Positions 2,071 through 49,451 are shown, counted from the stretch's first letter. The stretch is 64,000 nt of DNA from a virus (IMGVR_UViG_3300021363_000001:13622-77621); one strand, 5' to 3'. Numbers and translations: made by a program. The notes: generated from the letters alone by a model not told the origin.

Positions 2071-3231
2071 TTATTTGGAAGGTGACAAATTATTTTCAGC
2101 GGGGAAGTAAGACATATTTATCTGCAGGTCTTCACTGGAATCACCATATGATATATAGGTTCTTTTGAAAGTAGCTTTTATCAGTGCCGGAAGTTTCTTT
2201 GCCGTAGTCATCTGCACTACTCCATTTATAGTTACGGGAAATTCATGATCAGTCTGGTCAGCGCATGTGATAACAAGATTTTTCCCAGCCATAGAAGAAT
2301 AATTATAATCACATTCCAGTGCATAATTCAGTAGATCAATATCAAGTGGGGTGATCCGGAACTTGCCTTGATACTTATCTTCACGGTTGGTTTCATTCAA
2401 GTTATTCAACAGCTCCAGTGGCGGCTGATCTTCATTGGTCATGTATCCCTTACCATGACGTGTCTGATATGTCCTGGTTACATAATAAACATCTTTGATG
2501 CCAGGATAAATACTTAGCGCATTACGTGAAGTAGTATGAGACCTGGTTACGTTAGGGAAGAAGCCAAAATCCTGGTCAAGCATTATTCCTTGTGAGCCCT
2601 CAAAGACTGGATCGTAGCCAGAGAGAAAATCGTATGAGTTAATCACAACAATTTTTTTCCGCAGCTCTCTCACGCATCCAACAAAATATCCCAAACTATA
2701 TGCATTGTCAGCATCGAAGATTTCTTTATATCCGTAATATTCAGAAATGTGTTTAAGTTTTTGATGCAGAATGTTGTCATAAAATAAATCCTGCACATGC
2801 AATTTAAAGAACGATTCATGTCTTTGATGTGTGGCTCCAAAGCCAACGCCAACGCTGCCAAAAGATTTTACACTCTCCTCGGCAACTCTATTGAAATAAA
2901 TATCATATGGAGTGGTCACCGGGCATAACGCATGCACATAAATTCGTGGCGCTTGATCTAACATTTTTTTTAAGATGTGCCACTCATTCATAAAAGCTAC
3001 TGGAGAAAAAGTACAGTAGTGGCTCCATACAGTCGGAACATGTTGCAGCGTTCCTGCACCGAAGGAAGAAAATACATGACGCTTCCCATCTCTCACAACA
3101 GTATGTCCAGCCTGGTGCCCACCACTGAAGCGGACAACAATAGGGTTCGGCTTTTGAGAGCACAGGTAAGATGTTACCAGTCCCTTGCCTTCATCACCGT
3201 ATCCGAGCCCGATTATTACGCTTGCTGACAT
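2071..3231 (-). CDS. adenylosuccinate synthetase family protein (PurA-like, possible PurZ), 386 aa
   Basis: N-terminal GDEGKG P-loop, GGHQAGHT, VFEGSQGxxLDxDFG...TRSHTTS and TRxxGxG motifs typical of PurA family; shorter than bacterial PurA. Confidence 0.8.
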   Translation of the reverse strand: MSASVIIGLGYGDEGKGLVTSYLCSQKPNPIVVRFSGGHQAGHTVVRDGKRHVFSSFGAGTLQHVPTVWSHYCTFSPVAFMNEWHILKKMLDQAPRIYVHALCPVTTPYDIYFNRVAEESVKSFGSVGVGFGATHQRHESFFKLHVQDLFYDNILHQKLKHISEYYGYKEIFDADNAYSLGYFVGCVRELRKKIVVINSYDFLSGYDPVFEGSQGIMLDQDFGFFPNVTRSHTTSRNALSIYPGIKDVYYVTRTYQTRHGKGYMTNEDQPPLELLNNLNETNREDKYQGKFRITPLDIDLLNYALECDYNYSSMAGKNLVITCADQTDHEFPVTINGVVQMTTAKKLPALIKATFKRTYISYGDSSEDLQINMSYFPAENNLSPSK

Positions 3232-3817
3232 AGTATTTTAATATTGAAGTTTTTTGTTTATCTATTTCTTCCATTGTTTTTTTTCTTCCAAGCTGAGATT
3301 TGTTATGCCCATTAATATAACGTTGAGATGATTTAATTGTGCAAATAAATTTGTTCCTACACCCGCATTTACAAATTCTTTCCTCTCTTTTTATCCATCT
3401 ATAACTTTTGATTCCAGTTGGCCTCTTACATATACAACATTTGCATTCGACTTTGTGCCCACGCTCCTCTTTTGACATCCCTATATGAGAACGGCTCATA
3501 TTTATTCTTGACCGAAGGCTGTGCTTTATCCCTAATGGGCTTCCAGCTTTTTTTGATATATTATATTTTGGCTTTAATGTATCAAGATAGTATTGTTCTC
3601 GCTCTATCAGCTTTTGTTTATCATGCACCTGTTCAAGAACTGAAAATTCAAAAATGGACTCACCATATTTATTAAATGCGTTTTGAAGTATTTTACTATG
3701 ATGAGTCCCTTTTCTAAGCCTAGATAAATGAGCCCATATTCTATAATCGTATTTAACAGCAGAGCCAATATAAATATCTTCGGTTATTTTATTTCTTATT
3801 CTGTAAACGACTTGCAT
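3194..3817 (-). CDS. GIY-YIG homing endonuclease with NUMOD-like C-terminal repeats
   Basis: VYRI...IYIGSA (GIY-10-YIG), conserved R, YG..F, E, N residues; C-terminal GxKHS.xS/K-rich DNA-binding repeats and Cys cluster. Confidence 0.8.
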   Translation of the reverse strand: MQVVYRIRNKITEDIYIGSAVKYDYRIWAHLSRLRKGTHHSKILQNAFNKYGESIFEFSVLEQVHDKQKLIEREQYYLDTLKPKYNISKKAGSPLGIKHSLRSRINMSRSHIGMSKEERGHKVECKCCICKRPTGIKSYRWIKREERICKCGCRNKFICTIKSSQRYINGHNKSQLGRKKTMEEIDKQKTSILKYYVSKRNNRARIR

Positions 3818-6313: not shown

Positions 6314-6973
6314 ATGAAAACGGATGAGTTGATAGACATCGTGCAGCGTACTGTATCTGGCGATATTGTTACCGCAGATAACAAATATGACGATGCATAC
6401 ATACTTCAGCTAATTGACGGAGCCCGTGCTGTATGGCTTGTACAGATTTATGCAATAGACAAACGCATTGCACCGATCTGTTATCAGAAATATTATCCTG
6501 AATATTCAATTACGCTGCAGCCAAAGGACAGGTGTTTTGCTAAATTCAAAATGCCTGACATCGTAAAGCTGGATGAGCACAGCGATGGAATCCGGTATGC
6601 CGGTAGTGACGACTATAACGGTGGCCAAGCCAATGACTTCAGGCGTATTGTATCGCGTGCATGGCTGAGCACATTCTTTAAGCATCCAATCATGAATCCA
6701 TCAACACGATTCTACAGTGCCTTGTATGACGCCAGTTCTGGAGTGCTTGAGTTACGTGGTAAAGCAAAGTTTGTCAAGACTCCGCTGGTTGAGGCGCTCT
6801 TTAAACATCCCACTCAAATTCCAACATTCAACAGGGAGCTTGACGATTATCCTTTAAGTATTGATGGGATCACAGCCATTCAGAAGATGATTTTTGAGAA
6901 TGATACGCGCATAGTTGAAAGCACACGCCCGTCTGCCGCTTTTGGATCACCAGCACCATTATTAAAAAAGTAA
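6314..6973 (+). CDS. hypothetical virion-associated protein
   Basis: ORF 219 aa, tightly packed in late block. Confidence 0.4.
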   Translation: MKTDELIDIVQRTVSGDIVTADNKYDDAYILQLIDGARAVWLVQIYAIDKRIAPICYQKYYPEYSITLQPKDRCFAKFKMPDIVKLDEHSDGIRYAGSDDYNGGQANDFRRIVSRAWLSTFFKHPIMNPSTRFYSALYDASSGVLELRGKAKFVKTPLVEALFKHPTQIPTFNRELDDYPLSIDGITAIQKMIFENDTRIVESTRPSAAFGSPAPLLKK

Positions 6974-6977
6974 TTAA

Positions 6978-7721
6978 ATGAGTGAAGAAATAAATCCTGG
7001 CTTCTACCATGAGGTATCGTATGAGCAGCTGATCTCAAGTGTGAAGGCTGAACTAAAAATCGAAGTTTCGGACTCAGACATAATTTTTGAAAAATGGCTG
7101 AACGAAGGAATCAGGTCTGTAGATGCGTTAAGCATTTTTTCCAAATGCACAGCAGTATTACCCATTCATGATAACATGGCTGAATTACCGTGTGGATTTT
7201 TTAGAATGATTGCATGTACGCTTGGAGGGAATGGAGCTAATTGTATTTCTGCGATATACGTTGATCTGCCATTTCTCACATCGTGCGGCTGCGCACCGAT
7301 AATTAACAGCACCGGTATTTTCAATACACAAGGACTTTATGAAATTCAGAATGGAAGAATTTTTTTCCACTCTGATTTATTTACAACAGTTTCAACTACC
7401 AATGGGCCACAGACAATCACCACTACGCTTCCGATCACAGAGTGTACAATAAGTTATTTTGGATTTAATGTTACGGAGGATGGTCTGTTAAAAGCGTACC
7501 AGGATATGGAGCGTGGCTTGACTGCTTATGTGTGTTGGAGATATACGCGACAGAATTTTCGTGAGTATCCACAATACATTTCCGAAGGCTACCGACAGGA
7601 ATGGGTGGCACAAAAAAAATGGTTGCGTAGTGTGGCCTTCCAGAATGATTTCCGAAATACAAAACGTCAGATTGCGGAAATTGTGAATGCCATGGTTGTG
7701 GACAAGAATTTTTTACCATAG
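6978..7721 (+). CDS. hypothetical virion-associated protein
   Basis: ORF 247 aa in late block. Confidence 0.4.
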   Translation: MSEEINPGFYHEVSYEQLISSVKAELKIEVSDSDIIFEKWLNEGIRSVDALSIFSKCTAVLPIHDNMAELPCGFFRMIACTLGGNGANCISAIYVDLPFLTSCGCAPIINSTGIFNTQGLYEIQNGRIFFHSDLFTTVSTTNGPQTITTTLPITECTISYFGFNVTEDGLLKAYQDMERGLTAYVCWRYTRQNFREYPQYISEGYRQEWVAQKKWLRSVAFQNDFRNTKRQIAEIVNAMVVDKNFLP

Positions 7722-7729
7722 GAAAATAA

Positions 7730-10700
7730 ATGGCTAAAAAGTATTTAACTTTTCTTCTAGACTCTGTAAATTTTCTCCTTGGCATGAACAAGGATGATGA
7801 CTATCCTTTTAAAAAAAAGGAGCAGTATCTGCATGGATTAAATATTCGTCACGTCTCTCAATTCGGCAATACCGGCAGAGCAATACAAAACGTTCTTGGC
7901 AACAGGCATTCATTTGATATAGGCGTTGTCGTTGCAGCCGATAAGTTATTCCATATTCAGATGACGGCTCCTGCAACGCCACAGAATTATACCTGGGAGA
8001 TACGTGATGGCAACCAGAATGTGATGACCACGGTATCGCTGACTACCACTGCAAGCGATATAAACACAACGCTTACAAATGCAGTTGCAGCTTTTAATCT
8101 GGCTATGGCTGCGGTAACACCGACACAGACATTTGTAGTTGGATCGCAGACAACAGGATCAAGCACAGGGTATGTTTCTTTTTCAGTCACTACAATTCCT
8201 GGATGGGAGTATTATGTTGTAAGTACGGGCACTGATGTAAGCGCGGTTGAAGTTGTGGTTGAGGCAACGGATGCTTCAATGACAGGGGTGCCGGTTGTGA
8301 TCGGCAGTTATGATCTGCTTGGAGATTTATTTGTGTATAGCACTACTCAGGCTAATCTACCACAAACGTTTTCAGACATCGCATCTGTATCTAGTAGTGG
8401 TGGACAATACGAAATCACTACTACAAATGCGCATTCATTCACTGACCTGAGCGCCATTACCATTTCAGGAGTCACTGGCGTTGCGGCTCCAAACAATCTC
8501 AATGGCTACTGGATTATTAATGTCACATCATCCACAACATTTGTTTTGCTTGGATCATTATTCATTGTCGGTTCTGTTTTAACAAATGCTCAGTATACGG
8601 TCAACGTAAATGGTTATGGTGAAATAGGCATTGGTGTTGAAGATAACAACAGCGGTCTCTGGACGTACACGCGCCTGCTTGGAACCAAGGAATTAAATTT
8701 CAGAATCCAAAAACAGATTGATGTTTACCAGGAGCGCAATGCATTTTTGACCAGCTGCTATTTTACCGATGACTATAACCCACCCAGGGTATTTTATTAT
8801 AAAGGGCCGTTCATAACTGATGGAGCAATCCATGCGATAAATCCTTTGGGGCAGTATGCGTATGGTTCAATCAATCAGGAAACGTTGCTTACCGCTATTC
8901 AGACAAATGTAATTTTTACATTCACGCAGCAGCTGCAATCCGGAGGGGCTGTGCTTAGCGGTAACTGGAGATACGCAATTCGGTTTTTGACAGAGAGCCT
9001 GACAGCAACAGCCTGGACTGATCTGAGTAATCCGATTAATGTCTATACTCCAACAGATGTCTTTACAGACATCGCAAGTGCAGAGAACTTGTTTGGCGAT
9101 AACGAAAATACAACCACCTCTAAGATTAACGAATTTTTAATCTCAGGAATAATCCCTGGCTTGTTCAAATACGTAGAGCTTGCAGGAGTAAATTATTTAG
9201 ATACAACGCAAACATCTCAGATTATAAAACGCGATTTGCTGCTTGGTGGGAGCACGCAGATAATTCAGCATTTAGGAACCGAAACAGCAAGCACCGATCT
9301 TGATGCTGGTCAATTAAATTTTCAGCCGGTAAGCATTGCAACAGCAAAGAATATCAATGCTATAGATAACAGGTTGATTGTTTCAAACATCACAACTCTT
9401 GCCGATAAAGACTTCACGAATTTTTCGCGAAGCCTGACACATAAGTTAATTATCAAGACTCATGATGGTATCTTATCTCGATACGCTGGTGATTTAAGAA
9501 TTGGCGAGTATCAGCTGCCCGACAATGTTTATTCATTCGTTGGGTATATGCTCAATGAGACATATCGCTATGGAATAAAATTCAAATTAAAAGGCGGTGG
9601 GTATACTGAGATTTATTGGATTGACGACATCCGTTTTGACGATTATATTCAGGCTGGCGCTGCATTCAATCGCGGGAATCCTTTTGGCGACAATAGACGT
9701 GTAGTTGGTGGCTCACTGCCAAATATGGATTTAACCAATAATGACACCTCTGAGGTATACAACTTTGGAATCCAGTTTAGCAATATCAACTGGTTTTATA
9801 TTATTGATGGAGTACCACTTGCAAACATTGTCGAGGAGATCATCATTGAGCGCGTTGAGATGATTCCAAATTTCCGTGAAGTGTTGGGTAGGGGGATTGC
9901 AATATTAGGAAGTCAAGCACCTGCTTTTGGAATAGGGCCGGTACAAACACAAACCGTAACTGCAGCTATTCATACAAGAAATGCTGTAAGCATACTTACC
10001 GATCCATTTGTCGCTGGGCCAACTAAGAATATGGGTGATTATTTTGCAGCAACAGGATTGCGATTCGATAATCCTGTCGGCACGCCCACTACTCTTAACC
10101 CTGCATATCCAAATGGAAGTGTATCAACTCTTAATTTTCTGACAGGATCACTCTATATTCCTGACTGGTTATTTGGTGAATCCGATTGGTCATTTATTCC
10201 TGGAGATCAGATTGTAAATTTTGGTGCTCCACCAACCATTGATTACAGCGGGTTGACAGCGGTTGGCATTGGAGGCAATGCATTAAGCGCAGATGCAGAG
10301 TTCTATAATAATTATCGTGAGGTGAATGGACGCTGTACTGTTGGGTTTGGGCCAGGTGCGCAAGCGTTTTTTATTCCACTGAATGAGTCAATGTACGTTG
10401 GCACCGGTTCGATTGGGACATTTACAACAATAGCAAATACTACTTATTCAAAAAAATACGCTATTGCCACGACATTTCTTGGCTTCCCTTCTATTGAAGA
10501 GTCGGCACTTATGGATATGCCAGGCAGCCCGGTCTTTCTTTCATCAGCTGCACTGGTATCAGGTACAATATTCTCAAGTGATTTTTCCATTCGCATGGTT
10601 GAAATTTACCGTCCTAAAAATAATAAGTTCGGTGATATAGCCAATAGTAAATATATTCCTACTGGCCATTCGTTAAAATTTAACAGGACAGCATTGGTTG

Positions 10701-12301
10701 ATACTGATGTTTGGGGTGGCGATGTAATGTCACAGAAAACATGGCTCTTACATAAGCAAACAACTGAATATTTAATAAACCAAGGGGCCGATCCTGCAAC
10801 ATGGCTCCAGTCTGGATTGTGTGGTGGCTTATCGTTTTATTCTCAAAATCATGTTAACTCAGAAATGATTAACAGGAATGATTCTGGCAAAGGATATAAG
10901 TACCCAAAAATTTCTGAGATCGAATGGATGAATGGAATTGCAACAAATGCTTTTGATGTGGCTTACAATCATGGCTATGATATTCGTAATCAAATAAACA
11001 GCGACATCGCTTTTGACCCGAACAGCATTCGCACCAATGATCTGTCAACGCGCGCCTACTACAGTGACCTCAAGCCAATAGATAGCGTTCAGGACAACTA
11101 CCGCGTGATCCTGCCCCTCAACTTCCATGACCTGGACTTGAGTGCTGGAGAAATCATGCATCACGTAAATCTCAACGGTGAGCTTTTCACATGGCAGGTG
11201 AGAAAATTACAGCGCCAGTATTTCAATACCCGTGGTCAATTACAAACTACCAATAACCTGAGTATTGTCATCGGTGATGGATCGGTATTAACAAGGGACG
11301 GCCAGACAATCAGCGTCATCGGGACAACTCATAAGTGGAGCGTGATACGCGGCAAGAGTCAAGGAGGCAATGATGTGTTCTACTGGATCAACACTGAATT
11401 AAAAAAAGCATGCAGAATCGCTCTTGACGGCACGGTATCTCTGGCAGACATCGAAGGCATGCAAAGTTTTTTTGCAAATAACCTGCGCTGGGTATCTACG
11501 CATGACAACCCGGCCAGCGGCCAGGGGATTGCTGGAGTATGGGATGACAGGAATTTTGAAGCGCTCTGGACGATGCGCGGCCACAAGAATGTATCAGAAT
11601 GGAATTCGGTTATACCATATTCGGTTGGCAGCGTTGTTTCATATGCGCCAACGGTGTTCAGCACATATGAGCAGACCGGTGAGCTATACATCTCTTTGGT
11701 GAATACCAATGTAGGCCACAATCCTCAAACATCTACTACGCAATGGCAGCTCATTCCACATACGGACAATAATTACTATAACGAATACACCATTGCTTTC
11801 AATGAGCAGAAAAATCAATTCACGACCTTCTATACTTTCAAGCCAACGATTTATTTAAAGTATAAAGATGTTTTCCTTAGCCCTGATCCGCAAGCGCCAA
11901 ACACAATTTACCTGCACAACATCGGTGGCTACTGCCAGTGGTACAATGGGAATAATGAAGATGGCCACCTGACCCTTGTTTACAGCGGGGATAACAATAT
12001 GGTTAAGATGCTGCATGCATTGCTTGTTGGCGTGAAGCCGGCTCCTACACGAATAGACATCTCAACACAGGATCACCACACATTTATGCTTACCAGCGAT
12101 TTTGACGACATGAACGGGAACTGGGTGTGTGGGATCAAGAATGACACATTAACTTCTGGAACAGGCTCAACAGAAGACGACACCAGTAAGCTCTGGGGAC
12201 AGTATGCATTAATTGACATAACATTCCAACAAGGAGTGCTGCAGGTTGTGAATAGCGTAATATTAAAATTTGCACCGGTAACAAGAGACTATAGATCATG
12301 A
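7730..12301 (+). CDS. giant virion protein (1523 aa), Thr/Ser/Asn-rich, putative tail/receptor-binding or decoration protein
   Basis: Uninterrupted 4.6 kb ORF with T/S/N-rich beta-like segments. Confidence 0.6.
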   Translation: MAKKYLTFLLDSVNFLLGMNKDDDYPFKKKEQYLHGLNIRHVSQFGNTGRAIQNVLGNRHSFDIGVVVAADKLFHIQMTAPATPQNYTWEIRDGNQNVMTTVSLTTTASDINTTLTNAVAAFNLAMAAVTPTQTFVVGSQTTGSSTGYVSFSVTTIPGWEYYVVSTGTDVSAVEVVVEATDASMTGVPVVIGSYDLLGDLFVYSTTQANLPQTFSDIASVSSSGGQYEITTTNAHSFTDLSAITISGVTGVAAPNNLNGYWIINVTSSTTFVLLGSLFIVGSVLTNAQYTVNVNGYGEIGIGVEDNNSGLWTYTRLLGTKELNFRIQKQIDVYQERNAFLTSCYFTDDYNPPRVFYYKGPFITDGAIHAINPLGQYAYGSINQETLLTAIQTNVIFTFTQQLQSGGAVLSGNWRYAIRFLTESLTATAWTDLSNPINVYTPTDVFTDIASAENLFGDNENTTTSKINEFLISGIIPGLFKYVELAGVNYLDTTQTSQIIKRDLLLGGSTQIIQHLGTETASTDLDAGQLNFQPVSIATAKNINAIDNRLIVSNITTLADKDFTNFSRSLTHKLIIKTHDGILSRYAGDLRIGEYQLPDNVYSFVGYMLNETYRYGIKFKLKGGGYTEIYWIDDIRFDDYIQAGAAFNRGNPFGDNRRVVGGSLPNMDLTNNDTSEVYNFGIQFSNINWFYIIDGVPLANIVEEIIIERVEMIPNFREVLGRGIAILGSQAPAFGIGPVQTQTVTAAIHTRNAVSILTDPFVAGPTKNMGDYFAATGLRFDNPVGTPTTLNPAYPNGSVSTLNFLTGSLYIPDWLFGESDWSFIPGDQIVNFGAPPTIDYSGLTAVGIGGNALSADAEFYNNYREVNGRCTVGFGPGAQAFFIPLNESMYVGTGSIGTFTTIANTTYSKKYAIATTFLGFPSIEESALMDMPGSPVFLSSAALVSGTIFSSDFSIRMVEIYRPKNNKFGDIANSKYIPTGHSLKFNRTALVDTDVWGGDVMSQKTWLLHKQTTEYLINQGADPATWLQSGLCGGLSFYSQNHVNSEMINRNDSGKGYKYPKISEIEWMNGIATNAFDVAYNHGYDIRNQINSDIAFDPNSIRTNDLSTRAYYSDLKPIDSVQDNYRVILPLNFHDLDLSAGEIMHHVNLNGELFTWQVRKLQRQYFNTRGQLQTTNNLSIVIGDGSVLTRDGQTISVIGTTHKWSVIRGKSQGGNDVFYWINTELKKACRIALDGTVSLADIEGMQSFFANNLRWVSTHDNPASGQGIAGVWDDRNFEALWTMRGHKNVSEWNSVIPYSVGSVVSYAPTVFSTYEQTGELYISLVNTNVGHNPQTSTTQWQLIPHTDNNYYNEYTIAFNEQKNQFTTFYTFKPTIYLKYKDVFLSPDPQAPNTIYLHNIGGYCQWYNGNNEDGHLTLVYSGDNNMVKMLHALLVGVKPAPTRIDISTQDHHTFMLTSDFDDMNGNWVCGIKNDTLTSGTGSTEDDTSKLWGQYALIDITFQQGVLQVVNSVILKFAPVTRDYRS

Positions 12302-12819
12302 TAGTAGTAACAGGTGCGCCACGCACCGGGACATCGTTATTGATGCAGACCCTTGACCGACTCGGTATCCTGGTGGCAGCTCCTGCGTTTCTGCCTCAGC
12401 ATTATTTCATGAAGCAGTTTAATCCAGGCGGGTTCTATGAGTTCGCCAGCGAGGATGGAATAGAAGATCACCAGTACAAGGGGAAAGCAGTGAAGCTCTT
12501 TGGTGGCCAGCTGGTGAGAACGCCAAAGGAATTCATTAAAAAGCTGATTTGGGTACAGCGCGACAGGAAAAAGGCAATAGAGAGTTATGAGAAAATCCGC
12601 AGCTACCTACCATATGCGGGATTTACCTCAGAACAGATTTATGACGCCAATGTGGACTGTATCAGACTGTATAACTTTCCGGATCGAGCTACATTTCAGC
12701 TGGAGAAAATTCAGGCACATCCTGATATATTTATCCTGGACTTGATTAGTTATTTAGAAATTAACCCAACAGCAGCACAGGTAGAGGCTGCAGAAAAAAA
12801 TATAATAAAATGGAGTTGA
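12298..12819 (+). CDS. sulfotransferase-like P-loop protein
   Basis: N-terminal GAPRTGTSLL resembles the PAPS 5'-phosphosulfate-binding motif (PKSGTT-like); VQRDRKKAIESY resembles the 3'-phosphate-binding RDPRD..S motif. Confidence 0.45.
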   Translation: MIVVTGAPRTGTSLLMQTLDRLGILVAAPAFLPQHYFMKQFNPGGFYEFASEDGIEDHQYKGKAVKLFGGQLVRTPKEFIKKLIWVQRDRKKAIESYEKIRSYLPYAGFTSEQIYDANVDCIRLYNFPDRATFQLEKIQAHPDIFILDLISYLEINPTAAQVEAAEKNIIKWS

Positions 12820-13367
12820 GGAGTAAGATCATTGATGGATTTCCTGATTACCGCATCTATGAAGATGGGAGGGTGCAGAATATGAGAACTGGGAATTATA
12901 TAAAGCAAAGAATAACTAAGGGTTATCCGAATTTTCAGTTATTTGAGGATACCCACAGGTGGGCCAGAACACGAACCGTACACCGTTTATTAGCTATTGC
13001 TTTCATTCCGAATCCAGAAAACAAACCAGAGGTAAATCATATCAATGGCATCAAAGCCGACTTCGGGTTAGAAAATCTTGAATGGGTGACCTGTAGAGAA
13101 AATATAATTCACGCTATAGGTCTTGGGCTAATGAAGCCGACAAATAATTTGCGAATGCTTTCGCTTGAAGAGTGTAGAAAATATTCTGCGCGTGCGCGTG
13201 AGAAGAACAGGAAAAAAGTAGTTGATATTAAAACAAAAACCATATTCCCATCCATTGCCGTTGCTGCAGATTTGTACGGATACGCGAATAGAACACTATG
13301 TAGTTGGTTAGACGGGAGGAGCCCAAATAAAAGTAATTTAAGATTATTAAACACTGTAAATCAATAA
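12810..13367 (+). CDS. HNH homing endonuclease
   Basis: VNHINGIKADFGLENLEWVTCRENIIHA (HNH_3-type H-N-H motif). Confidence 0.6.
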   Translation: MELRSKIIDGFPDYRIYEDGRVQNMRTGNYIKQRITKGYPNFQLFEDTHRWARTRTVHRLLAIAFIPNPENKPEVNHINGIKADFGLENLEWVTCRENIIHAIGLGLMKPTNNLRMLSLEECRKYSARAREKNRKKVVDIKTKTIFPSIAVAADLYGYANRTLCSWLDGRSPNKSNLRLLNTVNQ

Positions 13368-13370
13368 GAT

Positions 13371-14141
13371 ATGCCCGTTGCCGCCATCGCTGCCGTTACA
13401 GCCATTGCTTCTTTGGCCTACTCAGCGCACAAAGATTCAGAGGCAGAAAAAGGAATCAAAAAGCTGGAGTCTCAACAGTTCCCTCGTTATGCCGTTACCC
13501 CAGAACTAAAAAGCGCATATGACCGTTCTGAGCAAATGGCCAAGTATGGTTATACTCCATCTGAGAGTGCCGCATTCAAAAATAATTTAACCAGGGCAAA
13601 CAACCTGAGCTATCAACGTGCCACTGACAGTGCCGGAGGAAATCTTGCATCAGCTATCAATCGTGGTATTCAAAGCAATAACATTGGAGCCCTCAATCAA
13701 TTTGCCGGTGCCGATGCAGGGCTCAAACGACAGAATATAAAATATGCCGACACGCTGGCGCAAGCAATGCAGCACCAACAGAACCTTGCAACACAGGCTG
13801 ACATTTCTCATCGTGTGATGCTTGAACAGGCATACGGAAGAGCGAAGAGTGACGCTGAAATGAATATGGTGAATTCCGGGATGGCTCTTGGTAATGCAGC
13901 CGCATATGGTGCGTCAAACAATCAGAATTTTGACGCACGCAATGCAGGGAATTCCATGCAGACTATGCCGCGCACTACAGGCGGTACACCGCAGAGCTAC
14001 ATGAATCAGGCTTATCCGAGCCTGGGGCAAAGTTATGTTCCAAATACATTACCAGCATACGGCAGCCCAGCACCGACAACAGATTACAGCTCTCCTGGAA
14101 TTTACAGGGATGCAAATATTGATGCATACGATTTTAAATAA
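13371..14141 (+). CDS. hypothetical virion protein (Ala/Asn/Gln-rich)
   Basis: ORF 256 aa in late block. Confidence 0.45.
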   Translation: MPVAAIAAVTAIASLAYSAHKDSEAEKGIKKLESQQFPRYAVTPELKSAYDRSEQMAKYGYTPSESAAFKNNLTRANNLSYQRATDSAGGNLASAINRGIQSNNIGALNQFAGADAGLKRQNIKYADTLAQAMQHQQNLATQADISHRVMLEQAYGRAKSDAEMNMVNSGMALGNAAAYGASNNQNFDARNAGNSMQTMPRTTGGTPQSYMNQAYPSLGQSYVPNTLPAYGSPAPTTDYSSPGIYRDANIDAYDFK

Positions 14142-14156
14142 AAATATTTTTAACAA

Positions 14157-16055
14157 ATGGCAGACCCAGAGGGCGTAAGCTTAGGAGAAGGCATCGGCCT
14201 ACAAGGACGTTATGATATTCGTGGTGGAGTAAAGGACATACTTCACAATGACGAAATACGTCTCAGGCGTAAGGCTGCAGCTGACAAAGCGGCCCAGGCG
14301 CAGAAGGACAAGAACGATGACTTTCTTTATAAATCAAAGAAGGACATTTATATTGATCCTAAGCTGTATCATCGTGCGCTGCTTCCGGATGCATATAAGG
14401 TGACCAATGAAGCCTGGGACAAGGTAGTTCACAGCGCACAGGAAAATCCCAATAACTATAAATACGAAGCCATGAGTACGCTCAGGGATGCAGCCGAACA
14501 GCTTGGCGCTATCCGCAAGCAAAGTGAGAACTGGACTGATGCAGAAAAAAAACTTGGTGCCGCCAATGTATTACAGACCGCTCCGCAGCAAGATTTCTAT
14601 AACCGGTTACGCAGCGGAAGTAAAGAAGATATTCTTGCTGCACAGAATGATCCAATGGGAACAATCAACCGTGGCGAAGACGGAGCTATCAATGTCGGCT
14701 ACACGATTCCAAAAGGCGTAAAGGTTGATCAGGATGTACAGAAGATATTCAAAGACGCCACTGCTGCCAACTTCCCGGTGATGATGCAGCTCAAGCAGAT
14801 GGGGAACACAAGACTCATCGCAGAGGTGCAAAGCATTCCCGAAACAGAAGCTGAGGCGCAGAAGGTATCACAGGATGTCTCTCAGGCTCTTGGTGTACCA
14901 TGGAGCACACCAAGTAAAGAAGCATTACTCAAAGGATATTTTGATACACGTCCGGATGTACAGGCTGTACACCGTGAAGATATTCGTCCTGATATTCTCA
15001 GTGGCCAAAATCCAGGTTTTGATCCTGAGAATCCAGATGATGTTTTTGCAAAATCATTCTTTCCTAAATACAAAGATTTGGGTGGTAACAGAACAAAGAT
15101 TCTTGCACGCACCATACCGGCTCCCACAGCAGCTGAACGCAAAAAGAAAAACTACGGATGGGATGGTGATGAGTGGAACAACTCACGTTTCGCTGTTCGT
15201 CCTACGGCGCAAAACGAAGGCGGCGTGATGAAAGAGGGCTCCGGATTTGAAGTACAGGATTTGACAGCAAACGAGAATTCATTCAAGGAAGTATGGAAGG
15301 CTCCGTATGCATTGAATTCTGAATCCGGAAAGCAAAGTAAAAGTTTTTCTGGAGAAATTCAAGGAGCGTTCACTGGCGTCACCATCCGCCGCAATCCAAA
15401 GACGGACAAGATGGAGTATTACGCTAAGATCACTGAGCCGTCCATCAGCGCACCCACTACAACACAGTCGCAGCCAATCGCTCCTGTTGATGGCAAGTAT
15501 GTAACTACGCGCGAAATATCTCCAGCTACAATTCCACCACGCACGCAGCTCATTCCATATGAAGATGTGAAAGGGAAAGTTGAGGCGTACACTGCCGGCA
15601 AAGATGCTGAAGGTGGATTCAAATTAAGACCTGAAGATTACCAGCGCCTGGATGAAATCAATAAGAAGATCACAAAAAAAGGATCATCAACTACAAATTT
15701 TGAACAACGCATTCAGAATCCGGAACTCAAAATTCAAAATAAGGATGGCTCATTCTCCACTCATAAGATGATGAGTTTTGAAGCTGATGGAAAATATTAT
15801 GCTGCTCCAACAATAGTTGAGAAAGATGGTAAGCTGGTTGAGTTGAGTAAAAAGGATGCTGTTCAATATGCATTGAAGAATAAGGAGTACAAGGAATTCA
15901 AAACAGAAAAGGCTTCTCAGCAGTATGCAGAAGGAGGATATAAGAAAGGGACTCCGCTTGAAAAATCTGTTTCCAAAAGAATGTATAGTGCATCACGCAA
16001 CAAGACAAAAATTATTTATTCTGACGGATCAGAAGAAATTATAGATGGCAAATAA
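14157..16055 (+). CDS. hypothetical virion protein (632 aa)
   Basis: Long ORF immediately upstream of, and overlapping, the 1749-aa gene. Confidence 0.5.
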   Translation: MADPEGVSLGEGIGLQGRYDIRGGVKDILHNDEIRLRRKAAADKAAQAQKDKNDDFLYKSKKDIYIDPKLYHRALLPDAYKVTNEAWDKVVHSAQENPNNYKYEAMSTLRDAAEQLGAIRKQSENWTDAEKKLGAANVLQTAPQQDFYNRLRSGSKEDILAAQNDPMGTINRGEDGAINVGYTIPKGVKVDQDVQKIFKDATAANFPVMMQLKQMGNTRLIAEVQSIPETEAEAQKVSQDVSQALGVPWSTPSKEALLKGYFDTRPDVQAVHREDIRPDILSGQNPGFDPENPDDVFAKSFFPKYKDLGGNRTKILARTIPAPTAAERKKKNYGWDGDEWNNSRFAVRPTAQNEGGVMKEGSGFEVQDLTANENSFKEVWKAPYALNSESGKQSKSFSGEIQGAFTGVTIRRNPKTDKMEYYAKITEPSISAPTTTQSQPIAPVDGKYVTTREISPATIPPRTQLIPYEDVKGKVEAYTAGKDAEGGFKLRPEDYQRLDEINKKITKKGSSTTNFEQRIQNPELKIQNKDGSFSTHKMMSFEADGKYYAAPTIVEKDGKLVELSKKDAVQYALKNKEYKEFKTEKASQQYAEGGYKKGTPLEKSVSKRMYSASRNKTKIIYSDGSEEIIDGK

Positions 16056-32456: not shown

Positions 32457-35400
32457 ATGCCATTTGTTTCAACCTTATATTCCGAAGGCTTAAATACAAT
32501 TCCAATAGCAGCAGTCTCATTTGCTGAGCTGACTCCTATCATTGAAGACCTCAGAAGAATAAATAATGCCAGTGCTGGTGTGGGGCCGCAAGGCGCTCAA
32601 GGCTCACAAGGAGTGAATGGCGCACAGGGCGCACAGGGGAATCAGGGCACTCAAGGCACACAAGGCTCTGCCGGGACGCAAGGGAGCCAGGGGCCACAAG
32701 GCGTGAATGGAACACAAGGCTCTCAAGGTGGCGCTGGTGCGCAGGGCGCTACTGGCGCTCAAGGTTCGCAAGGATCGCAAGGCGTTCAGGGCTCTCAAGG
32801 CACACAAGGAACACAGGGAACACAAGGAGCGGCTGGAGCCCAAGGGCTACAGGGCCCACAAGGTGTTACAGGTGCTCAAGGTAATCAAGGATTGGCTGGA
32901 GCCCAAGGTACAACAGGTTCGCAAGGCTCACAGGGCGACCAAGGATCACAAGGAGATCAGGGATTTCAGGGCGTAACTGGCGCACAAGGCGCACAAGGCG
33001 CACAGGGTCTTCAGGGTAGCCAGGGGACAACCGGTGCGCAAGGGCCGCAGGGTCAGCAAGGAACTCAAGGAACTGCTGGCGCACAAGGCGCACAGGGTGC
33101 GCAAGGAATACAAGGCACTCAAGGCTTCCAGGGAACTACCGGAGCACAGGGTGCAACCGGCGCTCAAGGAAACCAGGGCACACAAGGTCAGGCCGGAGCG
33201 CAAGGCACACAAGGTTCAGCCGGAACACAAGGCGCTCAAGGCGTGCAGGGATCACAGGGCATTCAAGGTGCGCAAGGTCAGCAAGGCGTTCAAGGAACCG
33301 CTGGAGTTCAGGGTACACAGGGAACCCAAGGCAATCAAGGTTTCCAGGGCACTCAGGGTGGCAGTCTTCCAACCAGCGGCGTGCTTGCGGTACAAACAAT
33401 AACTACCGCTCCGCTTCCGGCAAACACTTATGCCAATGGAGTATTAGGTGTTGGCGCGACCTTAACTGGAAATACAAATGCGGCTCTTGGAGTGGTAGGT
33501 GGAATAACGCCATTGGTTGGAGACCGCATCTTAGTAAAAGATGAGGTTACGCCTTCACGCAATGGTATCTTTGATATGACTCAAGATGGAGACGGCGCAA
33601 CCGTTCCATATATCTTGACTCGTACTACTGACTACGATCAGGCTAATACAGAAGTTTTTCAAGGAACATATACAATCGCTTCTGATCCAGCTGCTACTTT
33701 ATATAATCAGTTCTGGTTGATGTATACGGCTGGCTCAATCACAATGGGAACTTCAAATCTGTTGTGGAGTTTTGCTGGCACTCCTGGCGCTCAAGGCTTC
33801 CAGGGTTTCCAGGGAAATCAAGGCGTGCAAGGAACTCAAGGAGTACAGGGCGCTGCTGGAGTTCAGGGGTCACAAGGATTGCAAGGATCGCAGGGATCGG
33901 CTGGAACGCAAGGTGCGCAGGGTGTTCAGGGCGCTCAAGGGTTACAGGGAAACCAAGGCGTACAGGGAACACAAGGAAATACTGGTGCTACTGGAGCGCA
34001 AGGAGCGCAGGGTTTCCAAGGCATACAGGGCAATCAAGGATTCCAGGGCCGTCAAGGATTTCAAGGCACCCAGGGTGTGCAAGGCGCACAAGGGCTACAA
34101 GGTTCGCAAGGCTCCACTGGAGCACAGGGCCCACAAGGGTTCCAGGGCAACCAGGGAAATCAAGGTGTGCAGGGGCAAAGGGGGGTGCAAGGTGCTCAAG
34201 GATTTCAGGGCCGTCAAGGATTTCAAGGTGTGCAGGGCGCTCAAGGATTGCAGGGAATTCAAGGAGCTACCGGCTTCCAGGGCAATCAAGGCGTGCAGGG
34301 TACTCAAGGGTTTCAGGGAATAACTGGAGCTACTGGAGCGCAAGGGACACAAGGCTTCCAGGGAACACAAGGTGTGGCTGGAGTTCAAGGTTCCCAGGGT
34401 GTTCAGGGTTCTCAGGGAAATCAGGGATTCCAAGGATCGCAAGGCGCAACCGGATCGCAAGGAACACAAGGCGCAACTGGTACTCAAGGTGTACAGGGAA
34501 GTCAAGGCGTGCAAGGAACCCAAGGCTCGCAGGGCACACAAGGAGTGACTGGCGCAACCGGCGCACAAGGGACTCAGGGCACACAAGGTGTGCAGGGAGC
34601 ACAAGGAGCACAAGGCGCAACAGGTTCTACTGGCGCACAAGGAACGCAGGGTACTCAAGGATTTCAGGGAACACAAGGATTTCAGGGAGTAGGTATGACT
34701 CCAATTAATATAACTGTTGCTGCAGCACAGGCGCTTGTAACAGGATCAACTGTGATTCCTGGAGGATGGTATAACGTCACTGACTCATCACAAGCGATTG
34801 ACCCAGGAGATAGAATTTTAGTTCAGGGAACCACCACAAGCACATTTGATCAAACCGCTGTTTACCTTGACAATGTTAATAGCCAGCGCAATGAAATCGT
34901 TTACATCCTTGATGATACGCCTACCGATTCTATCATCATGCGCAGAGATGATTACGCAAATGAAATCTGGGACATAAATAATACCAATACAATTTTCAAT
35001 TTTCCATGGGGAGACCAATCTTGCCATAGCAATATAATCCGCAACGGCATAAGCTGGGCTGGAGTAATTCAGTTCTTCAGCAATAATATTTTGACTGGAG
35101 AAAACATTGCAGTTTCATATGGCGGTGGTGTTGGCGTGCCTACGCTGAGCGACAACATCATGCTTCAGGGATCATCTGTCCAGCTTGCTCCCACCGCTAC
35201 ATTCACCTCAAACACCCTTAATGTAAATGCGCTTATTGTTTGTCAAGGGACAATATCTAATTGCATTTTTGGTGCGGGCGCTGTCATTGCTGACGGTGGC
35301 TTCATCCTCACGGGCTGTACATTCCCATCTGGATTCTCTCTAATTGCTACACAGAATTACACCAATGTAATCTTTGGTGTTGGTACATACACTGCGCTAC

Positions 35401-35702
35401 TTACACAAACAGGCGTTGGTGCGCCAGTTGATACTGTATTAGAAAACACACTGGGGGGAACCGTAGTGTGGGCTTATGTTGGGTCTGGCATTTATACAGC
35501 CACTCTTACAGGTGCCTTTACAGCAAACAAAACTGCTGTTTCAATATCTCAAACATCTTCAGCGCAAGGCACCGGATTTGTTGCTTATGCAGACTGGGTG
35601 AGTGCCAACGTGGTGAGTGTGGCTACTTATGATATAGCTGGCGCTGGCTCTGCTGATGATGTGCTCTTAAATAACTTATTCCAAATACAGGTTTACCCAT
35701 AA
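32457..35702 (+). CDS. collagen-like tail fiber protein (1081 aa)
   Basis: Two long tracts of uninterrupted G-X-Q triplets ([10 protein letters not shown]...) separated by a globular segment; C-terminal beta-rich domain. Confidence 0.75.
32560..34700 (+). repeat. nucleotide-level tandem GGN-NNN-CAR triplet repeats encoding collagen-like (G-X-Q)n
   Basis: Reiterated caaggnncncagggn units over about 0.8 kb and 0.9 kb tracts; a similar tract at 37670-37920 and 38270-38540 in the second fiber gene. Confidence 0.7.
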
Positions 35703-35712
35703 AAATAAAATC

Positions 35713-36087
35713 ATGAATTTAACCTTAGCGGACATATCCGCAATCGTAGAACAGTTTTCCGGCAAAACAATTCAGGGAATGCCAACCGCCGTAGTATTAA
35801 ATTTTACTTCGCTGCAATCTCTTGATGATGACCAAAACTCAACGCAAATTTATTTTGGGAATTTAAGCGGAGTGTTGTTCGATAATTCAGAAGTAACCTT
35901 CAGGCGCGTTACCACAGAGCCTTCTGCTCAGGACTTCCCTGCGTTTTCTTATATTGGATCGCAAGCCAATATAGATAATACCGTTTCTGTAAATATCAAT
36001 GACCTGATGTTTACCTATGTGATAGGTGTTGCAAACATCCCCAGCGATCAACTGACGTTCTCCGGATACAAATTTACTGTAGCGTAA
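35713..36087 (+). CDS. hypothetical protein
   Basis: ORF 124 aa between fiber gene and glycosyltransferase. Confidence 0.4.
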   Translation: MNLTLADISAIVEQFSGKTIQGMPTAVVLNFTSLQSLDDDQNSTQIYFGNLSGVLFDNSEVTFRRVTTEPSAQDFPAFSYIGSQANIDNTVSVNINDLMFTYVIGVANIPSDQLTFSGYKFTVA

Positions 36088-36090
36088 TAT

Positions 36091-37332
36091 ATGGTAAGCT
36101 ACTTTACGCCTTTTCACAAGTCAACGATAGAATTTATTCAGCGATGCTATGCTTCCTTGTTAGCACAAGATAATCCAGATTGGGAATGGGTAATCGTGCG
36201 TAACGGAGAAGGCATTGATACAGACCTTTCCTTTTTAGATGCTGATGTGCGGGTAAGATTTTTTTACCACAGCGGCAAAGGAAATATCGGTGGATTAAAA
36301 AAGTTCGCGGTTTCAAAATGCGTGTCAGAGATTATTGCTGAGCTGGATTATGATGATGCGCTCACTCCAAACTGTACAGATAAATTAATTGAAGCGTTCG
36401 CTACCGGTTGTGATTTTGCATATTCTGATTGTTACGAATGCAAAGCTGACGGCACAACCTTCGCGCCATACGGAGCATACTACGGCTGGAGATATAAGAC
36501 TGAAGAAGATGGTAAGATCGTTACCCTGGCTCACGATCCATCACCGGCATCGCTGAGTTACATATGGTATGCGCCTAACCACATTCGTGCGTGGAAGAAA
36601 GAATTTTATGACAAGATCGGTGGGCATGACAGTACTCTTGAAGTAGCCGATGATTTTGATATTTGCTGCCGAACTTATATTTTTGGCACAATGGTTCATA
36701 TCAATGAACCATTGTATTACTACTACCACACAGGAGATAACACTTCAGGTCAAACCGCCAGTGACAACCGCAACGCAAAAATCCAGGAACTTACCCATGC
36801 GCTTCATGATAAGTACATACAGGATATTTGCATCCGCTGGTGCAGACTTAACAATTACTCTGCTCTTGATCTTGGCGGCAGGTTTAATTGTCCTGAAGGC
36901 TTTACTTCTGTTGATCTTCACGATGCTGAAGTCGTTATGGACTTACAACAGCCGTGGGACAAATTTTCGGACAACAGCGTAGGGGTAATCCGCGCATCGC
37001 ATTTACTTGAACACCTAAGCGACACCATTCATTTCATGAATGAAGCATACCGGGTATTAGTACCTGGTGGCTTCTTGCTCATTGAAGTCCCAAGCACAAC
37101 GGGCTCTGGTGCGTTCAGCGACCCTACTCATGTGAAGTTTTTTAACAAGCGCTCATTTGAGTATTACACAAACCAAAGTATAAGTCAGTATATACAGCCG
37201 CAGTATCGTGGACGGTTCCAGAAGAATCGTATCAACGAATATTTTTGGAAAAACTCTGACGTGGCTGTGATCCAGTGTCACATGATTGCATTAAAAGATG
37301 GGTATCATCCTATCGGAGAAAAATTGATGTAA
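36091..37332 (+). CDS. bifunctional family-2 glycosyltransferase / class I SAM-dependent methyltransferase
   Basis: N-terminal GT-A fold motifs (VIVRNGEG, ELDYDDA DxD); C-terminal MTase motifs (LLEHLSD...YRVLVPGGFLLIEVP). Confidence 0.7.
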   Translation: MVSYFTPFHKSTIEFIQRCYASLLAQDNPDWEWVIVRNGEGIDTDLSFLDADVRVRFFYHSGKGNIGGLKKFAVSKCVSEIIAELDYDDALTPNCTDKLIEAFATGCDFAYSDCYECKADGTTFAPYGAYYGWRYKTEEDGKIVTLAHDPSPASLSYIWYAPNHIRAWKKEFYDKIGGHDSTLEVADDFDICCRTYIFGTMVHINEPLYYYYHTGDNTSGQTASDNRNAKIQELTHALHDKYIQDICIRWCRLNNYSALDLGGRFNCPEGFTSVDLHDAEVVMDLQQPWDKFSDNSVGVIRASHLLEHLSDTIHFMNEAYRVLVPGGFLLIEVPSTTGSGAFSDPTHVKFFNKRSFEYYTNQSISQYIQPQYRGRFQKNRINEYFWKNSDVAVIQCHMIALKDGYHPIGEKLM

Positions 37333-37336
37333 TGAA

Positions 37337-42459: not shown

Positions 42460-43722
42460 TTATTCCTTATGCGCCTTTTTCATCACCTCGTCAATGCGTG
42501 AATTCTGGAATCCGTCATTGATGTACAATTCCAGAGTACGTAAATCACTGTGCTGGGTGAGCATCATCAGATCATACCCTTGAACCCCATTCTCAATGGC
42601 ACGATTAATAAAAGTGTTACGTGCTGAGTGGTTGCTGATCTTCTTTTCAATCTTGGCGTACCTGGCCAGGCGCTCCAGGGCCTGATTCATCCATTTAGTG
42701 CAGTCCTTTATCAATCTTTCAAATGACCTGTCCGGGAATGTATGCATCGCAAAGTCAAGAAATGGAAACACGTAGGTGTCTTCTGAAACATTACGTCCAG
42801 AATAAATCTTGAGTATTTCACGGGGCTCCGCTGGCAGTGTGATCTTAATGAATTTCCCAGTCTTATGAGCCCATATGGAAATCTGTTTGTAGTCATGAAT
42901 ATTCCCCCATTTCAAAGTCAATAAGTCGCGCACCCGGTATCCGATAGTTGTAGCTGAAAACAACCATGCCCACTTTGCATGATACAGCCACCAGTCAACG
43001 TTTTCTGAGAGAATCGTGGCACGAATCTTCTGCACTTCAGCTTCATTCAATGGCTCCTTTTTGGCTGAACGCCCGGCAATGATTTTGTATTTGGTAAATG
43101 GATTCTGCTCATGACGGATCACCCCATCATTCACCGCTGAGATCACAATGGTACGGATCATTGACAGGTGAGAGGCAATCGTTTTCTGTGCATACTCTTC
43201 TTCTTTCATAAAAGCCTGTAATTTATCAAGCCACTGAGTGGTGACCTCCTCAAACATTACAGGACGGTTTTTGGTGAATCTTTGAATGTTATGCATTCGG
43301 GAAAGGAAGGATTCATAAGTGATGATTTTATCCTTCTTAAAAGCCTCCACGTACTGCGCCAGACGCTGAATCATATCAGGAGAAGTCTTGTCGTTAAGCG
43401 AGTCCATGATTTGTGGAATGCTGATTTGTGGATTCTTTCGCTCCATCTCATAAATTTTTTCAGAGATTTCTGACTTGAGTCGGTTGAGTTTCACATTCAA
43501 CGAAGGGAATGTTTTTTTTGCACAGCCCAACTTTTTGTCCCAGTCCTTTTCATTGATCTCATCCTGGGTCGAAAGGAAGCCGAACCTTTTTCCTTTTGTG
43601 ATACGCAATCTGATTGCGCGGTTGCCATTACTTTTTTGGTGATGGCTGAGGATTAATTTTAGTAGTGCCATAGGAGTAATTATTAATGAAAGTTTAATTG
43701 ATTTTGAGAGTAGGGTTAACAA
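42460..43722 (-). CDS. int: tyrosine integrase
   Basis: C-terminal catalytic segment with R...HSARNTFINRAIENG...LMMLTQHSDLRTLELY (H-x-x-R and catalytic Y); N-terminal SAM-like domain; 420 aa. Confidence 0.85.
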   Translation of the reverse strand: MLTLLSKSIKLSLIITPMALLKLILSHHQKSNGNRAIRLRITKGKRFGFLSTQDEINEKDWDKKLGCAKKTFPSLNVKLNRLKSEISEKIYEMERKNPQISIPQIMDSLNDKTSPDMIQRLAQYVEAFKKDKIITYESFLSRMHNIQRFTKNRPVMFEEVTTQWLDKLQAFMKEEEYAQKTIASHLSMIRTIVISAVNDGVIRHEQNPFTKYKIIAGRSAKKEPLNEAEVQKIRATILSENVDWWLYHAKWAWLFSATTIGYRVRDLLTLKWGNIHDYKQISIWAHKTGKFIKITLPAEPREILKIYSGRNVSEDTYVFPFLDFAMHTFPDRSFERLIKDCTKWMNQALERLARYAKIEKKISNHSARNTFINRAIENGVQGYDLMMLTQHSDLRTLELYINDGFQNSRIDEVMKKAHKE

Positions 43723-49131: not shown

Positions 49132-49451
49132 CCCCTGAAAAAAAAGAATCACAGATGTATTTCCGCATGCTCATGTTCCTTGTGCTATTTACAGAATGTG
49201 AAAAGTGGGGCCTTGCAATGAAGGGTTCTGTAGATAAAGAGATGAAGATGCGCCTGAACAATTATTTATTCGCACAAGGCAAACTTGCTGATGCCTGTAA
49301 AAAATTTGTTGACCCGGATGTGATGGAAGAATTCGCTGAGCGCTTCAGCCGTGTGGTTGAAAAGCTAATTGAGTCACCAGTTGAAAAACGTGACGAACTG
49401 CTAGAGCTGATCAGGGCCTGGGCCAGCGGAGAAATTAATATCGTTGAATAA
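49128..49451 (+). CDS. hypothetical small protein
   Basis: ORF 107 aa. Confidence 0.35.
   Translation: MTPEKKESQMYFRMLMFLVLFTECEKWGLAMKGSVDKEMKMRLNNYLFAQGKLADACKKFVDPDVMEEFAERFSRVVEKLIESPVEKRDELLELIRAWASGEINIVE

Follow-up and report, generated by a model that had tools for sequence, protein, structure and literature searches.

A compact sulfotransferase-superfamily protein encoded directly downstream of the muzzle gene of a crass-like phage

Why would a phage carry a sulfotransferase-like gene among the genes for its virion, and what would the encoded protein act on? We considered this question for a 64,000-nt stretch of viral DNA (IMGVR_UViG_3300021363_000001:13622-77621), hereafter the window, in which positions are counted from the first nucleotide. 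The gene in question (ST, for sulfotransferase-like) lies on the + strand at 12298..12819, begins with ATG and encodes 173 aa with the N-terminus MIVVTGAPRTGTSLL. It contains the two motifs for which an earlier reading of the sequence (the original prediction) had singled it out, exactly as described there: GAPRTGTSLL at residues 6-15 (nt 12313-12342) and RDRKKAIES at residues 88-96 (nt 12559-12585). Scanning of the other frames and the opposite strand over 12298-12819 found no rival open reading frame (ORF) of more than 52 aa. As judged from the sequence and its predicted fold, it is well supported that the ST gene encodes a minimal-core member of the superfamily of sulfotransferases that depend on 3'-phosphoadenosine 5'-phosphosulfate (PAPS; Pfam Sulfotransfer_1/_3 clan), for which a tail component of the virion would be the tentatively preferred acceptor.

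Superfamily assignment and conserved sites

The assignment is carried by the family to which the ST protein belongs. A word-indexed search of 5.8 billion proteins returned 10 relatives, and an exhaustive hidden Markov model (HMM) search of 1.84 billion cluster representatives returned 3865 matches at E ≤ 1e-3, of which 1021 reached E ≤ 1e-10 and 68 reached E ≤ 1e-30; lengths were mostly 165-200 aa. For comparisons we used a family profile (A2) of 73 diverse sequences and took column counts from a set of 94 homologues; family clusters were counted at 50% identity. All 53 matches of the A2 profile to the PDB at E ≤ 0.01 were PAPS sulfotransferases, with E-values of 1e-8 for SULT1B1 (the best), 2.5e-7 for the CurM sulfotransferase and ~1.4e-5 to 3.8e-5, depending on the entry, for TPST1/TPST2. 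The Sulfotransfer_1/3 HMM search that the original prediction had proposed as a check gave matches to Sulfotransfer_3 for 61 of the 73 family members and to Sulfotransfer_1 for 31 of them, with the ST protein alone falling below the threshold, and longer relatives exceeded the Pfam gathering scores (P0133, 54.4 bits; P0087, 45.7 bits).

The fold agrees with the profiles. The AlphaFold model of the ST protein (predicted local distance difference test, pLDDT, 95.2; predicted template modelling score, pTM, 0.91) has the sulfotransferase alpha/beta fold and by Foldseek lies nearer to sulfotransferases than to P-loop kinases, with the first 36 matches all being sulfotransferases. The best viral match was a 183-aa 'Sulfotransferase family protein' of an uncultured Caudovirales phage (A0A6J7WIG0; TM-score 0.65/0.62, E=2.6e-5), which is of the same size class and fold and is likewise phage-encoded, with an automatic annotation as sulfotransferase family, but which shares only 16% identity with the ST protein in the structural alignment and has no reported link to crassvirus tail operons. 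Bacterial Sulfotransfer_3-type enzymes are also among the closest known proteins (CurM sulfotransferase, 4gbm; olefin synthase sulfotransferase, 4gox; Stf0, 1tex; StaL, 2ov8; Cpz8, 9kf2). Both lines of comparison point to the PAPS-dependent sulfotransferase that had been proposed, and superfamily membership, which we regard as well supported, rests on the family profile and on the relatives that pass the Pfam thresholds rather than on the protein's own Pfam score.

The conserved sites of the ST gene are as follows.

12298..12819, + strand: ST gene, encoding a compact sulfotransferase-superfamily protein (173 aa, 19.8 kDa, pI 7.8)
12313..12336, + strand: 5'-phosphosulfate-binding (PSB) loop G6-A-P-R9-T-G11-T12-S13, from alignments to SULT1A1 and family conservation
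12421..12441, + strand: motif N42-P43-x-G45-[FY]-[YW]-E48, in the loop between helix 33-41 and strand 64-67 of the model
12493..12495, + strand: invariant K66, in strand 64-67 of the model
12559..12585, + strand: 3'-phosphate-binding motif R88-D-R-K-K-A-I-E-S96, at a strand end and the start of helix 90-98
12694..12756, + strand: strand-helix block V-x-[FY]-E-D-[ML]-x-x-x-P ... F-L, matching FYEDMKENP...EFVG of cytosolic sulfotransferases
12790..12804, + strand: C-terminal A165-x-x-N168-I169, from column statistics; the protein ends four residues on

Both motifs of the original prediction, which it had read as 5'-phosphosulfate- and 3'-phosphate-binding-like, align to experimentally defined PAPS-binding residues of SULT1A1. 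In the PSB loop, which meets the pattern P-[KR]-x-G-[TS]-[TS] after strand 1, the profile alignments pair R9 with K48, T12 with T51 and S13 with T52 of SULT1A1 (PKSGTT in the SULTs). In the second motif, R88 pairs with R130 and S96 with S138 at the same 8-residue spacing (profile alignments against the PDB), and the model places strand 82-87 and helix 90-98 around R88 and S96. Further on, the strand-helix block pairs L135 with Y193 and P142 with P200 of SULT1A1. Among the 73 homologues, R9, S13, G45, K66 and R88 are invariant, and G6, G11, M16, G23, N42, I84, S96 and A165 are at least 90% conserved; the 94-homologue set gave R88 in 94/94, K66 in 94/94 and S96 in 93/94. The two motifs are therefore more than chance resemblances, because they fall where the family is conserved most strongly. 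As read from these alignments, the nucleotide-site residues R9, S13, K66, R88 and S96 are under purifying selection, and their strict conservation argues for a ligand-binding, probably catalytic, protein. The N-P-x-G motif is conserved as well (N42 86/94, P43 79/94, G45 94/94), and position 48 is acidic, either E or D, in 85/94. As the catalytic base we put forward E48 as a candidate, a Glu of the TPST/CurM type, and K66 may, by inference rather than from an alignment, be the counterpart of the catalytic lysine (SULT K106, TPST2 K158).

The conserved sites are set in a reduced architecture. Relatives cover the Sulfotransfer_1 profile only to positions ~182-207 of 255, and the PDB alignments of the family profile end at SULT residues 213-231. 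Family members match Sulfotransfer_3 at profile positions 2-36 and 126-215, and the variable middle of Sulfotransfer_3, where the acceptor site lies, is replaced in the family by the short N-P-x-G-[FY]-[YW]-E segment. The ST protein has no acceptor-binding insert of the canonical kind, and an acceptor site so reduced speaks for a bulky acceptor or for the help of a partner.

Several results weigh against the assignment, or against an enzyme that works as its canonical relatives do. First, the ST protein alone scored 22.3 bits against Pfam Sulfotransfer_3, below the gathering score of 27 and over residues 2-40 only; an NCBIfam scan with it (E ≤ 10) gave only an irrelevant DNA-polymerase match, and a single-sequence PDB search with it gave only noise. 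Second, the ST protein lacks the third PAPS-binding segment that canonical enzymes have towards the C-terminus, so that its PAPS affinity and activity are not assured; in the SULTs the third set of PAPS contacts is made by the C-terminal R257-K258-G259 loop. Third, the residue at K66+2 is Phe and not His, so the SULT-type base is absent; the catalytic base is His in the SULTs and Glu in TPST, heparan-sulfate and CurM-type enzymes. Fourth, alignment of the family to TPST2 with hhalign paired the same R88/S96 motif over residues 81-160 only, and as this alignment reached only the C-terminal half, E48 and E99 were left unpaired.

These differences also place the ST protein among known subfamilies. 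The SULTs (SULT1A1/1B1/1E1, Sulfotransfer_1) are the best profile matches of the family (1e-8), but they are ~295 aa long and use His108 as base, whereas the ST protein has 173 aa and a Phe at that place; the SULTs also have the C-terminal RKGxxGDWK loop and substrate-gating loops, whose counterparts are absent here. TPST1 and TPST2 (PDB 5wri, 3ap3) have solved chains of 274-282 residues with further C-terminal elements, share ~16% identity with the ST protein and are Golgi type II membrane proteins. For TPST membership we looked for full-length homology with the quartet R78/E99/K158/S285 together with type II topology; the ST protein has only the local similarity over residues 81-160, has no transmembrane segment and lacks the S285-containing C-terminal region, and it is not a member of the TPST family. 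It is a remote Sulfotransfer_1/_3 member outside the TPST, SULT and CurM subfamilies.

The muzzle junction and the wider family

The surroundings of the ST gene are those of a crassvirus tail module, with the following features.

6978..7721, + strand: tail ring protein 1-like gene (Pfam CrAss_Ring_1 at E=2.6e-4, below the gathering score)
7730..12301, + strand: muzzle gene directly upstream of ST (1523 aa, crAss_MUZ Pfam match)
12298..12301, + strand: ATGA overlap of the ST start and the muzzle stop (tcATGAtag)
12810..13367, + strand: HNH endonuclease gene downstream of ST (185 aa; Pfam HNH_3, PHROG 59)

The original prediction had described the upstream product as a Thr/Ser-rich virion protein. 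The virion part stands: the protein matches Pfam crAss_MUZ with 138.7 bits (E=3e-40; gathering score 27) and PHROG 28748 'virion structural protein', and by tblastn it matches g071, a virion protein of Cellulophaga phage phi14:2 verified by mass spectrometry (MS). Phage phi14:2 is the only GenBank phage with a detectably related muzzle (24.8% identity). The composition of the 1523-aa window protein is only modestly Thr/Ser-rich (9.8% Thr, 7.3% Ser). Genes resembling those of ring proteins precede it. The orthologue of the ring gene in the relative L001 carries PF24228 and PF24175, and the window has the canonical crassvirus gene order of ring, muzzle and cargo.

The ATGA overlap suggests translational coupling of the ST and muzzle genes, a reading made from the sequence. 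A long muzzle-ST fusion by frameshifting was ruled out, as a TAG in the ST frame stands at 12292-12294, two codons upstream. With strand beta-1 beginning at residue 2, the ST protein has no N-terminal signal or transmembrane segment. The G+C content of the ST gene is 0.448 compared with 0.429 for the window; since it matches the phage overall, there is no sign of recent acquisition. A promoter and terminator scan of 5-22 kb of the window found no enrichment over shuffled sequence, which is compatible with one long operon, though no evidence for one. Downstream, the gene that had been called an HNH endonuclease is indeed one (HNH_3 31.8 bits, gathering score 24.8; PHROG 59 E=9e-35). It separates ST from a 256-aa gene and is present in the 62%-identical relative (L001/L002). 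L006 does not have it, and there the homologue of the 256-aa gene comes straight after ST; the HNH gene is probably a mobile insertion.

The order of ring, muzzle and large cargo genes is the same in cultured PhicrAss001 (gp39-gp50) and phi14:2 (g074-g067). In PhicrAss001, cargo gp45 and gp46 and RNA polymerase-associated gp47/49/50 come after the muzzle gp44 (PMC10172136), and in phi14:2 the genes directly behind the muzzle g071 encode virion proteins verified by MS. Neither has a gene between the muzzle and the first cargo or tail protein, whereas the window has ST and HNH there. By these characterised crassviruses, ST is not a conserved component of the Crassvirales structural and cargo module. 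Within the literature collection searched, we found no paper that connects sulfotransferases with crAss-like phages.

Beyond this locus, the family comprises ~1000 clusters at E ≤ 1e-10, with proteins of 170-190 residues that consist of the PAPS-binding core only. In contexts drawn from 35 distinct family proteins in fetched loci, the family is phage-borne in all cases except one, and a 4-nt overlap with the preceding gene, as in the window, occurs in 13 of these 35. A tblastn search with three family members against 50,697 GenBank phage records gave no match. Among 185,579 species genomes there was one weak match only, with a search pattern so narrow that absence from cells is not shown. This match is a locus on a 37.6-kb Parcubacteria metagenome-assembled contig (L036 8001-8234, MNWK01000003.1) with 32% identity over residues 3-71, which could be a phage contig binned into a candidate phyla radiation genome or a true cellular copy. 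The outermost sequence of the family is cellular and lies among metabolic genes.

A rough neighbour-joining tree groups the sequences by genomic context, and this grouping points to long vertical inheritance within phage lineages and not to sporadic capture. In the inner clade (~37-62% identity to the window ST; window, L001/L002, L003, L006, L007, L038/L040, L054, L056), the ST gene always follows directly after the muzzle gene on contigs of sufficient length, with the muzzle identified by Pfam or by a muzzle HMM, and the muzzle-adjacent genes form one clade in the tree. For L004, L008, L010 and L011, the large protein encoded upstream gave no match to the muzzle HMM, so the constant position after the muzzle holds for the inner clade only. 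In the next clades, ST follows other large unannotated ORFs (600-1660 aa) in podovirus-like blocks, some of which have SU10-type capsid genes or ejected 'polyvalent' proteins downstream. A few genes downstream of ST, L010 encodes a 916-aa protein with an ART-PolyVal ADP-ribosyltransferase domain (10192-12942) and L004 a 2920-aa protein with SLT, RadC and weak GGDEF matches (6630-14814).

More distant clades have other forms and neighbours. A long-form clade (340-430 aa) has a conserved Cys-rich C-terminal domain that is homologous among its members, and the one long contig looked up (L037) has the gene directly after a 1758-aa tape-measure gene. In the long forms (L037 8001-9149, L041 73-1296 and proteins P0085-P0171) this domain has ~150 aa, starts with an invariant L-x-R-S and contains C..C...C..CW in many members and His variants in others. 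It had no relative in Pfam or the PDB, and a Rosetta-stone search for it as a separate ORF near short forms did not find one. In a T7-like clade, the ST member lies between the primase-helicase and DNA polymerase A genes. These loci (L012-L016, L018-L035; e.g. L014 8001-8597) encode members of 197-226 aa in podoviruses that also have a single-subunit RNA polymerase and ribonucleotide reductase, usually with a 4-nt overlap with the helicase stop. In a further clade, the ST member adjoins a sigma-factor gene and exonucleases. With these more distant relatives found in replication modules, a tie to virion genes does not hold for the entire family. One member (P0175, 387 aa, on a 9.8-kb ENA contig) is fused to a histidine-phosphatase domain (PF00300, by precomputed Pfam), and a partner domain that handles 3'-phosphoadenosine 5'-phosphate (PAP) or phosphate would be in keeping with PAPS chemistry. 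Six family members were scanned with PADLOC defence models without a match, which gives the family no connection to known defence systems.

Candidate acceptors and rival explanations

On balance we favour the view that the ST protein is a cytoplasmic PAPS-dependent O-sulfotransferase. In the mechanism that we propose, the P-loop-like PSB loop (R9, T12, S13) would hold the 5'-phosphosulfate of PAPS and R88 and S96 its 3'-phosphate, while K66 and the acidic E48 would probably serve to activate the hydroxyl of the acceptor and to stabilise PAP as it leaves. The active site is expected to be open because the acceptor insert and the C-terminal lid are absent, and such a site would suit a macromolecular acceptor or would need a partner. 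Expression would be late and translationally coupled to the tail muzzle gene, and the gene appears to have been inherited vertically at the muzzle/cargo-gene junction in this phage lineage.

Our tentative preference for the acceptor is a tail component made at the same time, namely the muzzle, collagen-like fibres or their glycans. It is ranked first because the operon position is kept in the inner clade, an open site is predicted and a cluster of collagen-repeat and family 2 glycosyltransferase (GT2) genes is present; all genes around this junction encode virion proteins in cultured crassviruses (PMC10172136; phi14:2 annotation). The cluster holds two genes for proteins with collagen triple-helix repeats, at 32457-35702 (1081 aa, 11 repeat stretches, E=8e-89) and 37337-39565 (742 aa), and these flank a GT2 and methyltransferase gene at 36091-37332 (413 aa). 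The region 32457-39565 has the appearance of a fibre gene cluster that brings along an enzyme for glycosylation, and would suggest decorated collagen-like tail fibres in a crass-like phage, which makes virion decoration chemistry plausible in this genome.

A virion acceptor has to be set against the following. The only relative of the GT2 protein found in IMG/VR is a single locus on another contig (L052) in another context, and no ST gene was found within its ~6-kb flanks. Some distant family members are placed between the primase-helicase and DNA polymerase genes of T7-like phages, and others stand beside a sigma factor and exonucleases. The cultured phages PhicrAss001 and phi14:2 have no gene at the ST position. 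The most specific form of the proposal, in which ST would be a dedicated virion-maturation enzyme co-translated with the muzzle that O-sulfates the muzzle, collagen-like fibres or glycans, or is itself packaged as cargo, appears doubtful to us.

A role directed at the host follows closely in rank, on account of the distant relatives in replication modules; taken by itself we hold it to be possible rather than probable. ST would then be an auxiliary metabolic gene that sulfates a lipid-linked envelope glycan precursor of the host, a lipopolysaccharide or capsule unit or a small metabolite, and its position in the tail operon would do no more than record where it was once inserted. Possible benefits are a block to superinfection, avoidance of re-adsorption to debris or a rewired sulfur metabolism. 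The presence of the family in unrelated phage types and in non-structural modules (T7-like helicase/polymerase; sigma factor/exonucleases) and the position of the nearest non-phage relative among cellular metabolic genes are in favour of such a role, as is the lack of a signal peptide, which implies action in the cytoplasm, where envelope precursors are made. Published work likewise counts phage sulfotransferases among the auxiliary metabolic genes and gives their role as unclear (PMC10580990; PMC8290583). However, the crass-like clade keeps one exact position, with start/stop overlap, down to ~37-40% identity, as a module component would rather than a moron, and no genes for envelope-glycan biosynthesis are adjacent. 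A late modification of the surface would be of little obvious benefit in a lytic cycle, yet this phage carries an integrase.

We consider it unlikely that the ST protein is a non-catalytic protein with a sulfotransferase fold, which would serve as an assembly factor that binds PAP(S) or a nucleotide, or as an internal virion or cargo protein in the slot between the nozzle/muzzle and the ejected proteins. In T7 this is the slot of gp13. Such a protein would account for the truncated architecture, with neither the third PAPS segment nor the acceptor insert, and it would match a neighbourhood in which every gene has a virion or cargo protein as its orthologue in cultured crassviruses, and the ejected 'polyvalent' proteins downstream in relatives (ART-PolyVal in L010, SLT/RadC in L004). 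However, the invariant residues are of the nucleotide-site and catalytic type (R9, S13, K66, R88, S96) and not surface patches, distant members occur in replication modules, and no ST-like protein was found in the PhicrAss001 virion (PMC10172136).

Very little speaks for sulfate as a leaving group, as in the CurM and olefin-synthase sulfotransferases or retinol dehydratase, in an elimination or substitution whose substrate would be a metabolite or else a hydroxylated nucleobase or nucleotide. The T7-like relatives wedged between the primase-helicase and DNA polymerase genes would suit it, but no partner gene (hydroxymethylase, thioesterase etc.) was seen beside ST in any context, the context in this window is structural, and the resemblance to the CurM sulfotransferase is no stronger than to other sulfotransferases. 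Finally, a P-loop nucleotide or nucleoside kinase, whose kin or other P-loop NTPases the original prediction had named as the best matches that would speak against it, is scarcely credible and was rejected: the sequence is GAPRTGTS and not GxxxxGK[ST], with Thr (T12) in place of the Walker-A lysine; sulfotransferases came first by profile and by fold and made up all significant sequence matches; neither the Pfam scan (E ≤ 1) nor the NCBIfam scan (E ≤ 10) brought up a kinase family; and the R..8..S 3'-phosphate motif is specific to sulfotransferases.

Other window features and meaning of the family

Elsewhere in the window, 14 tRNA genes lie within 22-1920, ten on the + strand and four on the - strand. 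A gene on the - strand at 2071-3231 encodes a 386-aa adenylosuccinate-synthetase-like protein (Pfam E=4e-43) and adjoins a GIY-YIG endonuclease gene (3194-3817, - strand). The best PDB matches of this protein are cellular PurA, and none named PurZ appeared at E ≤ 1e-5; it may be either a PurA-type auxiliary gene or a PurZ-type (2-aminoadenine DNA) enzyme. Together, the HNH (12810-13367) and GIY-YIG genes suggest active traffic of homing endonucleases. A tyrosine integrase with Arm-DNA-bind_5 and Phage_int_SAM_5 domains is encoded at 42460-43722 (- strand) next to an HTH_19/HTH_3 regulator (44053-44727, - strand). Integrases with these domains are typical of Bacteroidota elements, and the integrase and regulator together suggest that this crass-like phage is temperate or integrating and infects a host of the Bacteroidota. 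At 49444-51327 a 627-aa SPFH/Band 7 domain protein (E=6e-23) is encoded, an unusual cargo for a phage genome.

Sulfation is a major means by which eukaryotes and some bacteria tune surfaces and signals. We know of no phage sulfotransferase with a known substrate. Short phage proteins annotated as 'sulfotransferase family' were already present in UniProt, and viromics papers already list sulfotransferases, so the original prediction overstated the case in calling such a gene unusual for a phage; new here are the minimal architecture, the large and mostly phage-borne family and the fixed position after the muzzle in a crass-like lineage that is uncultured. In viromics, sulfotransferases have been described as viral auxiliary genes of unclear function (PMC10580990; PMC8290583), and the role of a phage-genome sulfotransferase 'remains unclear' (PMC10580990). 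Calls of sulfotransferase auxiliary metabolic genes may often concern this phage-specific family and not captured host metabolism. For enzymology, the family offers a minimal scaffold for the study and engineering of sulfotransferases. If the protein is inactive or directed at the host, ST would be an ordinary accessory gene. For phage biology, its fixed place at the muzzle/cargo junction makes sulfation of tail components, or of a molecule met during infection, a testable proposal. Should the virion-maturation proposal be true, these environmental crass-like phages would bear a sulfated, polyanionic tail surface; this would be the first case of a bacteriophage particle sulfated by an enzyme, and no smaller functional sulfotransferase core would be known.

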